Assembly (NCBI GenBank): GCA_965215565.1
Contig: CBDCDZ010000004.1
Coordinates: 1,568,001-1,632,000, forward strand
Direction: 5' to 3'
DNA length: 64,000 nucleotides
Source: Trueperaceae bacterium
Lineage (GTDB): Bacteria > Deinococcota > Deinococci > Deinococcales > Trueperaceae
How positions within the stretch are numbered: position 1 is the stretch's first letter; every line of letters starts with the position of its first letter. A model generated the notes under the pieces. That model was not told the origin of the DNA, searched no databases, and worked only from the letters and a program-made list of their open reading frames with translations. Below, piece by piece: positions 6,283 through 10,804 of the stretch. Position numbers and translations under genes: made by a program.

Positions 6283-7113
6283 CTAGCGCCACTCCTCCAA
6301 CGCGATGACCTCTAAAAACGCGCTGACGACCTCTTCGGGATAGTGCTTGCCCGCGAGCCGGTTGATGCGCTGGATTGCAGCCTCCCTGGGCAGCGCATTC
6401 CTATAGGGTCTATCCGTTGTCATCGCGTCGAAAGCGTCGGTGATAGCGACGATATGCGCCTCGAGTAAAATCTCGTCTCCCCGGAGCCCCTGTGGGTAGC
6501 CCGAGCCGTCGGGACGTTCGTGGTGCTGCTCGACGATGGGTCCAGCCTCCGCGATGAGGGTATCTTCTAACATCTCGCGCCCGAAGGTAGGGTGGCACTT
6601 GATGATTCGCCACTCGGAAGGCGTGAGCGGGCTGGGCTTTTGCAACACCTCGACGGGCACCCTAACCTTACCCACGTCGTGCAAAAACGCCGCCACGTCT
6701 AAGAGATAGAGTCGCTCTTGCGACAAGCCGAGCTGTTTGCCGACCGCGAGCGCCAAGCGCTGCAAACGGTGACAGTGCTCGGCGGTGTAGCCGTCTTTCT
6801 TTTCGATAGAAACCGCTAAATTCATCAGTTCGCGGAGCGTCTGTGAGACGCTCCAGAAGGTGGGGACGCTCGAGACATATAGGAGCCGCGCCGACGCTTC
6901 AGCCCGCAGGGTGAGGGGCGCGTCAGGCGTGCGGCTCAGCAAGCAGTCGCCGACAGCTAAGCGCACGTTCGCGCCGACGAGCACCCCTTTGAGCATGTAG
7001 TAGCTCTCCTGCACCCCTTCGCGGGGTGCGACGGTGAGCGTCTCGCCGCGCCGCAGCGACAGCTCGTGCAACTCGACGCCACCCGGCTGCGTCACCAAAA
7101 GACGCCGCTGCAA
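6283..7113 (-). CDS. HD-GYP cyclic-dinucleotide phosphodiesterase with a cupin-like N-terminus (true start may be ATA at 7212)
   Basis: YTAEHC, LHDVGK, HHERPDGSGYPQGL and DAFDAMTTDRPYR motifs. Confidence 0.9.
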   Translation of the reverse strand: MQRRLLVTQPGGVELHELSLRRGETLTVAPREGVQESYYMLKGVLVGANVRLAVGDCLLSRTPDAPLTLRAEASARLLYVSSVPTFWSVSQTLRELMNLAVSIEKKDGYTAEHCHRLQRLALAVGKQLGLSQERLYLLDVAAFLHDVGKVRVPVEVLQKPSPLTPSEWRIIKCHPTFGREMLEDTLIAEAGPIVEQHHERPDGSGYPQGLRGDEILLEAHIVAITDAFDAMTTDRPYRNALPREAAIQRINRLAGKHYPEEVVSAFLEVIALEEWR

Positions 7114-7264
7114 CGCGCCTTCGCTGATCGTCTCGATGCCGCCGCTCTGCTGAATGAGTTCGAAGCCTCTGGGTAGCTGCGCGCTCGACGTTTCATGTGA
7201 CTTAGACCCTATGGCTCGGTGCTCCTTTCGGCGGTTATGACCTCAGTCAGGGCTCGCGACGAAT

Positions 7265-7292
7265 TGCGGTGTGTTTGCGGTACATCTGCGGT
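7265..7292. promoter_or_regulatory. Three TGCGGT direct repeats in 11-bp phase (candidate regulator binding site)
   Basis: TGCGGT at 7265, 7276 and 7287, upstream of the HD-GYP gene. Confidence 0.55.
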
Positions 7293-7601
7293 GCGTTCGC
7301 CCTATAGGTTGTATCATTTCTAGCGATATTAGGCAAAATACACACATCACTGCATGTACACATAAGCTCACTTACCTATCCACTCAGGTATAACTTATGC
7401 ACAAAGCGTCTGCGGGCAACTATACTTGAGTCGAGGAACCCCGTCATGAGTCGCTAAGCACTTCAGCTTCAATAATCTAAACTATCTCGAGGAAGTTTTT
7501 GCGCTCAGAACGGACTTCGTTGACATTTTCTAATTTAGACTATTTCAACGCACCTACTTAGTCCACGCAATGCTCGCCTCTTTTTGTGTATAGTATTGCA
7601 C

Positions 7602-10019
7602 ATGTGGCTCTCAAAAAGGTTGGCGCAACTTAAAGGTGCACGCATCGTTACCTTACCGCATCGCCCCGACTTGGGCGTGCAACGTCTCCTTAATGCGTTC
7701 AAGACAGAAGCGAAACCGCTCATGGTCATGGAGCTTGACGAAGCCGACGCTTGTGACGCGCAGGCGCAAGCGCTTAAATTCTCCGACGCGGTGACGAGCG
7801 CACTAGGTGTAACGCTCGTCGCGCCGGGGCTACCCGTCGTCGCCGGTCTCAGAATTTTGGCGGCGTTCGAGGAGATTCACGGCAGACCCACCTATCTACT
7901 TTTCGGCGCTGAGCACGCGCCAGAGCTTGTCGACTTGCTCAGGGGTTCAGACGCCGAGCGCCTCATTCTCGTTTCCAAAACGCCGCTCGAGGTTCCCAAA
8001 GCGGCTCATTTGGACGAAGCTGCGCTCAAGCTCACCGAAGAGGAAGCGTGCGCGCTCGCAGGTGGAATGCTCAGCCGCGAAGAGGTCAGCGTTTTACTTC
8101 AAGAGGCGAACTACGCTTACGAAACCTTTAACCTGGCGCTGCACGATAAAGTAGGGCTGCCTTCACCCCTCATGCCCACCCTATGGGGACCGCAACTCCC
8201 CCCCGGCACGGAGATCGCAGTGTCGCCGGACGAGTTATTAGAAGTGCTCGTCGAGCGTGAGGAGTGGGGACGTGCCCTCGCGCTCGTGGTGCGGCATTTG
8301 CCCGAACGAGCCTCCACCATCCTCTCAGAAGCCGGTCCTCACTTCATCAATCAAGGCTTACACGGACGGCTCTGGCACTATTTGGACCTTCTACCCGCTG
8401 AGTATGAAGACGACACCGTGCTCTTTTGGAAACTCTCTGCGGGCATTCGGCTCAACCGCTACGAGGAGCTTGGGGAGCGCATCCAGGCTCATCTTCAGCG
8501 CCACGAAGCGCCCGAGTTGAGGGCGCTCTACGCGGGCATCTTCCTCACGCATGAAGAAGCGTACGCCGAAGTGCAGCGGGCTGCGCTTTTAGAAACGCCC
8601 TTTACGTTACACATGCAGGGATTTTTTGAAGATGATATCGCAAAGGGCATAAGCTTCCTCAAACGGGCGGTGCGACTTGCCGAGCGTAAAGGGCGAACTG
8701 ATGACGCTGTGCGCAGCGCAGGAACACTCTCTTTACGACTGATGGACGCCGGTTGTTACCGTGAAGCGCTGCACTGGAGCGGTTGGAGTTTAGACCTCTT
8801 CGAGAAGAGCGGCATGAAAGACCTTTCGCGCAAACTCCTGCTCATCAACGACTATGCGTTCGCACGTGTTCTTACAGGTGAAGTGAGCGGGCTAGGTAGT
8901 CTATTAAGCGAGAGCGAGCGCGCTATTGCGGGCATCTTTGATATTTGTGCGGAATTTCTCAGGGAGACTTTAGGTGATTATTATGTCGCCACTGGAGAGG
9001 TCGCAAAAGCTTTGCCCCTCTACCGTCTCATCTACGAAAATGCGTCTCGCGAGGAACTAGGTAGGGGCGGACTCTCTCTCGTCAAAGCGCTGCTGGACCT
9101 AGCGAAGTACGACGAAGCGGCCAGAATAGCAGAACGTATGTATCATCTAACTGAAGACTTAGCACCTATTTATCATCAGCCAGCCGTGCTCGCGCAAGGG
9201 ATGGTTTTATGTTTTACGCATCCGCACAAGAGTAGCAAGATTTTAGGGGAGCTTTTAGAAAATGTTCAACTTCCCGCCTATCTAGAAGCTCGCGCGAGGC
9301 TCTACAGAGCCTACGCGCTTATGGAACTTAACGACGAAGCGTCGGCGCGTACTCAGCTTATGCACGCTTCGCTGAGCGACTTAGCCGAAAGTGGTCTCAG
9401 GTTTTTGTCCGGCCCTGAAGAGCATTTTCGTAACCTCTGGGACACCGTCTTAGGTGAGGTTACTCTGGAGCTTCGCTTTTTGGGGCACCGCGACGTTTGG
9501 CTAGAGGGGAAGCGGCTCGACTTACCTCTCCAGTCGCTCGAGCTTCTAGCTATCTTGGCGCAGTATCCGATGGGCATCAGCTCGGAAAAGCTCGCGCTCG
9601 AGCTTTACGGCGAACGGGGAAACACGAACGCACTATACGTCGCGATCAAAAAGCTGCGTGGGTGGATTCCTGTATCGAACCCACCCTACAGACTCGAGTA
9701 TGAAGTCCGCGCCGACTTTCTCGAGTTTGAAAGGTTCTCGCTTAGTGGAAAGCTCAAGGAGGCAATGACGCTTTATAGAGGCCCACTTTTAGAGGAGGCG
9801 CAAGCTCCCGCAATTGAACATTTACGCGAACATCTCGACGCACAGATATACGAAGCTATGCTCGTTTCGAATGATGTGGATGCGCTGAGCGCTTACAGCG
9901 AGTACGTTGATGACGATCTTGCTGTCTGGGAACGTCTCTTAGAAGTTCTTCCCGCTGGAGACCCACGTACACTTCCAGCGCGCACTAAAGTCAAAGCACT
10001 AGCTCTCGAGTACAGCTAG
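7602..10019 (+). CDS. Large transcriptional regulator: degenerate N-terminal domain, TPR-like helical core, C-terminal OmpR/SARP-type winged helix and BTAD-like segment
   Basis: C-terminal LELRFLG...LELLAILA...SSEKLALELYG...NALYVAIKKLR...AMTLYRGPLLE; Ala/Leu-rich helical repeats; ATG 7 nt after TATAGT (leaderless-type start). Confidence 0.75.
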   Translation: MWLSKRLAQLKGARIVTLPHRPDLGVQRLLNAFKTEAKPLMVMELDEADACDAQAQALKFSDAVTSALGVTLVAPGLPVVAGLRILAAFEEIHGRPTYLLFGAEHAPELVDLLRGSDAERLILVSKTPLEVPKAAHLDEAALKLTEEEACALAGGMLSREEVSVLLQEANYAYETFNLALHDKVGLPSPLMPTLWGPQLPPGTEIAVSPDELLEVLVEREEWGRALALVVRHLPERASTILSEAGPHFINQGLHGRLWHYLDLLPAEYEDDTVLFWKLSAGIRLNRYEELGERIQAHLQRHEAPELRALYAGIFLTHEEAYAEVQRAALLETPFTLHMQGFFEDDIAKGISFLKRAVRLAERKGRTDDAVRSAGTLSLRLMDAGCYREALHWSGWSLDLFEKSGMKDLSRKLLLINDYAFARVLTGEVSGLGSLLSESERAIAGIFDICAEFLRETLGDYYVATGEVAKALPLYRLIYENASREELGRGGLSLVKALLDLAKYDEAARIAERMYHLTEDLAPIYHQPAVLAQGMVLCFTHPHKSSKILGELLENVQLPAYLEARARLYRAYALMELNDEASARTQLMHASLSDLAESGLRFLSGPEEHFRNLWDTVLGEVTLELRFLGHRDVWLEGKRLDLPLQSLELLAILAQYPMGISSEKLALELYGERGNTNALYVAIKKLRGWIPVSNPPYRLEYEVRADFLEFERFSLSGKLKEAMTLYRGPLLEEAQAPAIEHLREHLDAQIYEAMLVSNDVDALSAYSEYVDDDLAVWERLLEVLPAGDPRTLPARTKVKALALEYS

Positions 10020-10035
10020 ATATACAGCACACATT

Positions 10036-10069
10036 AAAAAAGGACTCGGTTTTACATGACCGAGCCCTT
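10036..10069 (-). terminator. Terminator hairpin between the regulator and the convergent peptide gene
   Basis: AAGGACTCGGT...ACCGAGCCCTT stem; the A run on the left is a U tail for the minus-strand transcript. Confidence 0.65.
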
Positions 10070-10081
10070 CGCAAAAACAGT

Positions 10082-10198
10082 TTATCGGCTTGTCGTTTGG
10101 TTTGTACCCGTACTAAAAGCTACTCTACCTGGTCCTGCCAGCGCAACACTGCTAAAAAATAACCCTATCGTCACTGTAGCCACTAAAACTTTACGCAT
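10082..10198 (-). CDS. Small secreted peptide precursor, 38 aa (MRKVLVATVTIGLFFSSVALA-GPGRVAFSTGTNQTTSR); absent from the ORF track
   Basis: GGAGG RBS 5 nt before ATG; basic n-region, hydrophobic h-region and ALA signal peptidase I site; own terminator downstream. Confidence 0.75.
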   Translation of the reverse strand: MRKVLVATVTIGLFFSSVALAGPGRVAFSTGTNQTTSR

Positions 10199-10284
10199 GA
10201 CATCCTCCCAGATGTGAACTCTGTTTCCGACCTCTTCGGAAAGCTTTCTTAAAATCTAGTTTAATGAAGAGGTCTTAATTCAAC

Positions 10285-10372
10285 CTTAGCGAAGCTGCTA
10301 AGGCGTTACTAAGACAGAAACGTACCTGGAGGTCCTCGAGCTTAGCCGCACGACTAAGCTACTGCTAAGACA
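10285..10372. promoter_or_regulatory. Duplicated operator-like motif CTTAGC-N6-RCTAAG-N6-CTAAGACA
   Basis: Copies at 10285-10316 and 10341-10372 (56 bp apart) between the divergent small ORFs; the second lies upstream of a TATACT -10 at 10391. Confidence 0.6.
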
Positions 10373-10414
10373 CCGCAAAGTGGGTACTCCTATACTTGAT
10401 AACAGGAGGACGTT

Positions 10415-10582
10415 ATGAACCAAAACAAGGTTTATCTGGATGAATTTCCCGTCAACGAAGAGGGTCTTTTACTCGTCAACGATTTAGCTCTTATCGAAGC
10501 GCTGCGCCGCCGCGCTGAGCGCCAGAAAGCGGTTAGGAAGACGCAAACCGACGAAAACACGCTGAGCACCAAACCGTCCTAA
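10415..10582 (+). CDS. Small hypothetical protein, 55 aa (MNQNKVYLDEFPVNEEGLLLVNDLALIEALRRRAERQK...); absent from the ORF track
   Basis: AGGAGG RBS and TATACT -10 directly upstream; open frame to TAA 10582. Confidence 0.65.
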   Translation: MNQNKVYLDEFPVNEEGLLLVNDLALIEALRRRAERQKAVRKTQTDENTLSTKPS

Positions 10583-10804
10583 GCTCACCCAACCCTAAGC
10601 TCACCTAAGTAGCCCGGCGAAGCGCGATTTTCTTTTGCGCTATCTTGCTGACAACATATTGAAGTAGCCGTTTCACAACGTACCGAGACAGAGCGTCGCT
10701 TTTTGAAAGCCGACGAAGACGAACGTTTTGCCTTCCCTTCGGGAAACTTCGCAAACGAAGGAACCTGCTATGGCCACGCTGACGGTACGAGGGTAAGGCG
10801 CGAT

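Follow-up and report, generated by a model that had tools for sequence, protein, structure and literature searches.

The 64,000-nucleotide (nt) stretch of DNA analyzed here (the window; contig CBDCDZ010000004.1, positions 1,568,001 to 1,632,000) comes from a Trueperaceae genome of 4.49 Mb with 58% G+C, and the locus in question, a candidate peptide signalling system, occupies its positions 6283 to 10582. A gene for a cupin-like HD-GYP phosphodiesterase on the minus strand (6283-7212) is divergent from the gene of an 805-amino-acid (aa) regulator on the plus strand (7602-10019). Tail-to-tail with the latter, the stop codons being 62 nt apart, lies a 38-aa open reading frame (ORF) on the minus strand (10198-10082) that encodes a putative secreted propeptide, and a 55-aa ORF on the plus strand (10415-10582) is in turn divergent from the propeptide gene. 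The original prediction had interpreted this arrangement as peptide signalling with the HD-GYP enzyme as its output. Our analysis of sequences and models leaves the pairing of propeptide and tetratricopeptide repeat (TPR) regulator well supported at the level of the regulator family, through synteny, 12-residue repeats, phased operators and the co-folding of a homologous pair, and drops the HD-GYP output.

The propeptide ORF is as first described, with an ATG start, and its ribosome-binding site (RBS) reads GGGAGG (10209-10204). Judged by a simple script that considers charge, hydrophobicity and the A-L-A end, it has a basic N-terminus and a hydrophobic core, which together form a predicted Sec signal (10198-10136) ending in A-L-A and followed by an exported part of 17 aa (10135-10085). 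A PsbT match on this ORF was discarded as a hydrophobic-helix match below the cut-off. The terminator that had been attributed to the gene corresponds to a terminator-like hairpin of 12 pairs with a T run (10070-10039, minus strand), although such a hairpin alone carries no significance, with seven terminator-like sites in the scan versus 6.3 expected. A hairpin in the 5' leader was not more stable than those of shuffled sequences (z -0.99) and an Rfam search of this locus (L001) matched no family, which argues against a riboswitch here.

As proposed originally, the regulator is predicted to hold a TPR-like core and a C-terminal winged helix with a BTAD-like region, to which we add a degenerate N-terminal STAND-like domain. 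On the basis of AlphaFold2, Foldseek and weak profile matches these parts span residues ~205-620 (TPR superhelix), ~621-805 (winged helix and BTAD-like) and ~1-190 (STAND-like). The full-length AlphaFold2 model (17-row alignment; pLDDT 91.5, pTM 0.86) shows an alpha/beta domain at the N-terminus, followed by an extended helical repeat and then by a winged helix (~621-705) with a helical C-terminus, and its best Foldseek match was the STAND-TPR protein 6mfv (E 3.4e-7, low TM). In the Atlas its neighbours are AAA/WHD_MalT/BTAD proteins, and its own cluster carries PF27103. Among 17 family members, Pfam TPR_12 and TPR_19 matched six and five, respectively, and the C-terminus gave weak OmpR-type profile matches (Trans_reg_C in seven members, BTAD in one, all weak), while neither an NB-ARC nor an AAA family matched any of them at E 0.01. 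An intact Walker A motif reads GxxGxGK[T/S]; since the P-loop-like stretch of the regulator lacks the Walker A lysine in both alignments, the NTPase is likely dead. The regulator mRNA is probably leaderless, because its ATG is preceded, at a distance of seven bases, by a TATAGT -10 box (7589-7594) that is conserved in the related loci L133 and L031. Leaderless mRNAs are reportedly common in Deinococcus deserti.

Modelled alone (62 rows), the TPR region reached a pLDDT of 96.4. Structural alignment to 959 chains matched it to MalT domain III (Z 24.3, rmsd 4.5, 326 residues aligned; TM 0.62/0.69) and to peptide-bound Rap (Rap-CSF; Z 24.0, rmsd 3.5, 320 residues aligned), followed by NprR (Z 21.5) and AimR (Z 19.8). 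The model thus fits MalT domain III and the Rap-peptide complex equally well, but the margin of both matches is small, because an unrelated eukaryotic TPR protein reached Z 22.6. At E 0.01, 17 regulators compared with Pfam and NCBIfam gave no RRNPP family, and the Foldseek matches listed for the full and TPR models included no RRNPP structure; this is no sign of unrelatedness, since the later structural alignment recovered Rap, NprR and AimR.

Regulator homologues come from Trueperaceae and other Deinococcota, in agreement with the phylum assumed in the original prediction. The family was found in 102 of the 128 genomes of the window's taxonomic family (a tally that takes in one unpublished genome), and with a profile it was detected in 132 of the phylum's 251 genomes; outside the family many of these matches are partial. 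It comprises 507 clusters at 50% identity (E up to 1e-30, partial-length hits counted in), and full-length homologues measure ~800-850 aa. A metagenome scan with the regulator yielded 48 pattern matches, none of which was confirmed. Among 12 close regulators variation was highest in the TPR core (0.555 bits) and about equal in the BTAD-like region (0.537 bits), so it was not taken as evidence. Several variants of the regulator were also observed. Family f4 and genus g43 have shorter homologues (565-605 aa) that consist of the TPR region and winged helix only, without the STAND-like N-domain, and are nearer RRNPP size. This genome encodes two further paralogues: L036 (G000:C4 3666976-3669672) is accompanied by a convergent ORF for a 90-aa secreted product and by a repeat phased at 11 nt, and L038 (G000:C4 1871137-1873677), beside which no peptide was found, is possibly an orphan receptor. 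Tandem regulators at L209 have one glycine-rich peptide downstream common to both, and the single regulator at L161 has twin peptide genes downstream. At L220 (G000:C4 2804284-2808586) three codirectional ORFs, for a BTAD-first regulator, a lipoprotein-like product and a 32-aa product with a signal peptide, perhaps represent another type of peptide-linked regulator.

We assessed the pairing on a de-duplicated set of 112 full-length regulator loci, each scoring at least 150 bits and with an open frame of 700 aa or more; for 93 of them both flanks were available. The set keeps three near-identical locus pairs and one regulator with an in-frame stop (L058). A filter for ORFs of 28-95 aa with an RBS, basic start, hydrophobic core and polar tail found a match at 68 of the 93 loci, compared with 11 of 250 long ORFs drawn at random from this genome, including two regulator loci. 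When the flanks were widened and the thresholds relaxed, the count rose to 82 of 93. For a held-out test, 20 regions were fetched from three other families, and two already-seen loci and one split gene were removed; with the filter unchanged, 12 of 18 regulator ORFs had a match, in 11 cases in the tail-to-tail position seen in the window. The adjacent signal-peptide ORF, whose presence beside regulator homologues had been suggested as a check, was therefore found at most loci in both sets. In a tree of the 112 regulators each clade showed its own peptide layout and motif: convergent downstream (the window's layout), same-strand downstream, divergent upstream with an ending D-x-G, and same-strand upstream with 33-mers. 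Propeptides of homologous loci measure 33-95 aa or take tandem-repeat forms. In five of the divergent clade (L089, L093, L097, L102, L125) the C-terminal 12-mer is repeated two to four times and, because it is the last 12 residues that are tandemly repeated, the 12-mer is likely the mature peptide unit. Tandem pheromone repeats also occur in RRNPPA propeptides, according to the accessible text of PMC11343458 and PMC9765709. Propeptide orthologues were present in L133 and L031. Between the window and L031, whose regulators are 82% identical, the signal shows 9 synonymous versus 2 non-synonymous codon changes; in the exported part, compared ungapped, the numbers are 3 and 13.

The spacer between the propeptide and 55-aa genes carries two CTTAG-N8-CTAAG-N6-CTAAG blocks (10285-10313 and 10341-10369), predicted operators that are the sole two copies in the 4.49-Mb genome and are kept in L133 and L031. 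Read outwards on either side, repeats 11 nt apart are followed by 10 nt and a -10-like hexamer. Specifically, the predicted activated promoter of the propeptide gene (10289-10258, minus strand; kept in L133 and L031) combines CTAAG (10289-10285), TTAAG (10278-10274), 10 nt and the -10 box TAAACT (10263-10258), and that of the 55-aa ORF (10354-10396, plus strand), predicted from the sequence, a genome pattern search and related loci, combines CTAAG, CTAAG and CAAAG at 11-nt steps, 10 nt and TATACT (10391-10396). Tandem CTAAG, 10 nt and a -10 box gave four hits in the genome, two being these promoters; the other two had no convincing gene, and a larger CTAAG regulon was not found by genome search. 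Across the family we looked for 11-nt-phased 6-mers 20-200 nt upstream of the peptide gene, with expectations from shuffles. They were found at 39 of 40 loci of the divergent clade versus 1.6 expected (control spacings 3 versus 5.0 and 7 versus 3.9), at 8 of 14 convergent loci versus 0.6, and at 3 of 7 same-strand-downstream loci versus 0.3. Repeats that replace the -35 box are typical of OmpR/SARP activators (SARP, Streptomyces antibiotic regulatory protein). Since phased repeats mark the promoters across much of the family as they do the sites of such activators, the propeptide gene is likely a target of the adjacent regulator. AfsR, for instance, binds a 22-bp repeat at afsS, as reported in the available part of bioRxiv 10.64898/2026.09.02.748808.

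From this spacer the predicted outputs of the regulator are the propeptide gene itself and the 55-aa ORF, which has an AGGAGG RBS and lacks a signal peptide. The ORF belongs to no known family (no Pfam family and no Atlas match), and has ten homologues at 64-98%; of the 128 genomes of the window's family it occurs in 3, all of this one genus. Directly 3' of it, a 15-nt direct repeat containing CTAAG recurs with 16-nt spacing (10578-10608) and was, by eye, absent from L133 and L031. Phased repeats had been claimed for the spacer between the HD-GYP and regulator genes too. Three TGCGGT copies at 11-nt spacing do lie there (7265, 7276 and 7287; 7265-7292), but they represent another motif than CTAAG and are absent from L133 and L031; this spacer is poorly conserved and lacks tandem CTAAG.

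For the binding model we used a homologous pair of the divergent clade, L078 (TPR residues 205-632, propeptide residues 19-48), selected for its defined mature end and because the model called for a chain of 30 residues. The co-fold scored 0.65, whereas the best of three controls scored 0.01. The mark applied was reached by 116 of 157 solved complexes versus 2 of 215 mismatched pairs, counts that hold roughly, as own alignments were used here. Runs shared at least 39% of contacts, and confident contacts fell on peptide residues 41-48, the D-x-G end. The model thus supports a placement of that end in the TPR groove. Its receptor contacts R317, Q346, R349 and R379 were invariant in the divergent clade (51/51) and the same-strand-downstream clade (8/8). 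Among 85 loci with a peptide (four omitted as duplicates or N-masked), R317 plus R349 and the D-x-G motif occurred together in 48, were both absent in 31 and were discordant in 6. The co-folding check suggested originally was thus passed by a homologous pair; the window's own regulator lacks most of that pocket. Because its pocket residues and peptide motif differ from the L078 class, peptide binding by the window's regulator is something we infer by analogy. The divergence of both pocket and peptide would fit a changed specificity.

Taken together, we consider it probable that the 38-aa ORF is a pheromone precursor. By analogy with RRNPP and MalT/AfsR, the propeptide would be exported by Sec, cut after A-L-A and trimmed. 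The trimmed peptide would then be re-imported through an Opp-like ABC system, as in RRNPP (the genome has six SBP_bac_5 genes), and bind the TPR groove of the 805-aa regulator. The winged helix of the latter would act on the 11-nt-phased CTAAG repeats and, from this position shortly before the -10 box, as with MalT and AfsR, would activate both the propeptide gene and the 55-aa gene divergent from it. Activation with positive feedback is slightly preferred over AimP-like inhibition, because MalT-type sensors are activated by their inducer.

A number of points weigh against this reading. The ORF filter was set after peptides had been seen and its control is one genome; in at least two cases (L098, L203) the ORF that passed is probably not the cognate one, and 11 of the 93 loci, including L038, had no peptide ORF even after the relaxed search. 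The ungapped exported-part count against L031 may be inflated by an indel, and the comparison with L133 gave 4 synonymous and 5 non-synonymous codons in the exported part and 2 of each in the signal. The promoter pattern is short, other spacings yielding one or two genome hits versus four. Phased 6-mers were found at none of 11 same-strand-upstream loci, and the window locus itself failed that test. The partner in the L078 co-fold has a pLDDT of 38-39 (below 50), so its fold is uncertain, and the pass may stem from similarity to Rap-Phr complexes of known structure. The agreement of pocket and motif comes largely from two related clades, whose members are kin and not independent counts. At the pocket positions the window's regulator has L309, M338, F341 and R371, keeping one of four residues, while its peptide has no D-x-G and no acidic residue in the exported part, and the L078 model carries over to this pair by homology only (30% identity). 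Finally, peptide uptake across the diderm envelope is only inferred, and AimP-like inhibition fits the same gene layout.

The same pair could also operate with the peptide confined to the periplasm, where the producer itself, and not its neighbours, would sense it as a timer or envelope gauge. Deinococcota are diderm and no gene for outer-membrane exit or processing was identified, which would fit such self-sensing. On the other hand, the exported part diverges fast between close paralogues and each clade has many variants, both of which fit specificity groups better than a private signal, and tandem duplication raises the dose, as in pheromones; this makes self-sensing unlikely in our judgement compared with a pheromone read by other cells.

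Another possibility is that the window's peptide is the partner of the cupin-like HD-GYP enzyme. This protein (Pfam HD_5, E 4.9e-31) has an intact HD dyad and HHE-x-x-DG-x-GYP motif, which place it in the HD-GYP class, with hydrolysis of cyclic di-GMP (c-di-GMP) or cyclic GMP-AMP predicted only. Its start is likely a non-canonical ATA (window 7210-7228) behind GGAG, at the same place in three loci. The N-domain gave weak cupin matches and has four paralogues in this genome (L229, L219, L221 and L230; G000:C4 982772-983743, 1237107-1238027, 3311294-3312289 and 3830061-3831074). Each adjoins a 41-43-aa signal-peptide ORF and none of these loci has a regulator homologue. The peptides end in F/Y-R-V-N type tails or in a repeated 6-mer; one is preceded by a c-di-GMP-II-GAG riboswitch (43.5 bits, cut-off 40) and another by a sub-threshold riboswitch hit (30.9 bits). 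In relatives, 16 of 30 cupin-HD-GYP loci passed the same ORF filter, although some loci are repeated and five of the passes are 93-aa proteins. The cupin-HD-GYP gene with a secreted peptide is, at the sequence level, a second peptide-linked module, and no closer peptide lies beside the window's HD-GYP gene. However, the window's peptide is ~3 kb away, in the tail-to-tail position usual at regulator loci, and lacks the F/Y-R-V-N type tail, while HD-GYP genes occur, in several positions, at only 19 of 112 regulator loci within the flanks at hand. Moreover, the cupin-HD-GYP gene at L049 comes after a peptide of the D-x-G type, and the regulator of that peptide carries the arginine pocket to match. 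Position and sequence class thus favour the regulator as the partner of the window's peptide, and we give the HD-GYP partnership little chance. The enzyme is likely a recurrent neighbour rather than a direct output here: as a direct regulator target it was rejected, because the CTAAG operator is missing from its spacer, and the original proposal of an HD-GYP output also sits poorly with its rarity at regulator loci and with four paralogues that have their own secreted ORFs.

That the peptide is a mere output, a small secreted effector of a regulator sensing a metabolite like MalT, is just as improbable: phased operators mark the propeptide gene as a likely target only, the TPR fold is as close to MalT domain III as to Rap, and AfsR activates a small gene through 22-bp repeats with no known peptide signal (bioRxiv 10.64898/2026.09.02.748808, in its accessible part), but the co-fold contacts were localised to the conserved peptide end and the pocket residues vary with the peptide motif.

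The pheromone reading brings the locus close to the RRNPP(A) systems (Rap-Phr, NprR-NprX, PlcR-PapR, AimR-AimP and Rgg-SHP), with which it has in common an adjacent gene for a small propeptide of predicted Sec type, a cytoplasmic TPR protein onto which Rap-peptide, NprR and AimR superpose, a variable exported part and tandem pheromone repeats. In RRNPP proteins the effector, an N-terminal helix-turn-helix (HTH) or three-helix bundle, precedes the TPRs, whereas the receptor here has an N-terminal alpha/beta STAND-like domain and a C-terminal OmpR-type winged helix with a BTAD-like region. Compared with the criteria in the accessible part of PMC10075063, the 38-aa propeptide lies within 10-100 aa (criterion 1), carries a likely Sec signal, as judged by our script (criterion 2), and adjoins a TPR protein (criteria 4 and 5; 62 nt, and 68 of 93 homologous loci), but that protein has 805 aa and not 250-500 (criterion 3). 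Identity is 8-12%, the phylum is diderm, and the family shows convergent, divergent and same-strand layouts. The system would therefore work like RRNPP but lies outside that group, because the receptor length is outside the range and the domain order differs. With MalT-type STAND-TPR activators the regulator shares the order of NTPase-like domain, TPR sensor and C-terminal DNA-binding domain, besides the structural and Atlas matches above; it differs in its degenerate Walker A, in a winged helix/BTAD-like output where MalT has a LuxR HTH, and in a predicted ligand that is a genetically linked peptide and not a sugar. AfsR/SARP proteins of Streptomyces have the same domain set (winged helix with BTAD, STAND and TPR), direct repeats and a small adjacent-type gene, afsS, but AfsR carries its SARP module at the N-terminus, not at the C-terminus as here, and has an active NB-ARC, and no propeptide partner is described for it in the available part of bioRxiv 10.64898/2026.09.02.748808. 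The regulator is thus not a canonical STAND or SARP protein either. A literature search, mostly of open papers and with supplements such as the RRNPP_detector tables outside its scope, found no description of this pairing, and 'Deinococc' is absent from the main text of PMC10075063 and PMC9765709.

Intracellular receptors of peptide pheromones have been described for Bacillota and their mobile elements. We regard as evenly balanced the broader view that STAND-derived (MalT/AfsR-like) activators serve across Deinococcota as receptors of their own secreted pheromones, with several specificity groups, a sensor fold bridging MalT and Rap, and repeated c-di-GMP wiring through HD-GYP genes and riboswitch-gated peptides. 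If true, this would be a class of peptide cell-to-cell signalling outside Bacillota, and a large regulator family would escape the 250-500-aa RRNPP signature. It would also raise the questions of whether RRNPP and STAND sensors derive from a common ancestor and by what route a peptide signal gets through a diderm envelope. To our knowledge the inducers of STAND-type regulators are mostly unknown, and this locus offers a testable ligand, operator and target for one. In a survey of thermophiles, searches for particular types of peptide system turned up no complete one (PMC6022435, in its accessible part).

Some further observations concern HD-GYP genes and small secreted proteins. In the same-strand-upstream clade (L148-L154, L041, L080-L082, L103, L126, L010) an HD-GYP gene lies between a 33-aa short-tailed peptide and the regulator, and phased repeats are absent; these peptides are reminiscent of the short hydrophobic peptides of Rgg. 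At L241, L243, L244, L245 and L246 the cupin-HD-GYP gene is followed by a conserved 93-aa secreted protein ending in P-V/I-D-P, and one paralogue of this genome is followed by a 105-aa protein with an end similar to that motif. Four c-di-GMP-II riboswitches above the cut-off were located at G000:C4 2483145-2484498 and 3833873-3833956, three of them within 1.4 kb. Lastly, L218 (G000:C4 1212103-1216240) contains a 42-aa signal-peptide ORF ending in an 8-residue W-A-G motif that occurs four times close to the beginning of the adjoining ORF (likely a protease, by eye), beside a TPR-like and HD-GYP-like ORF.

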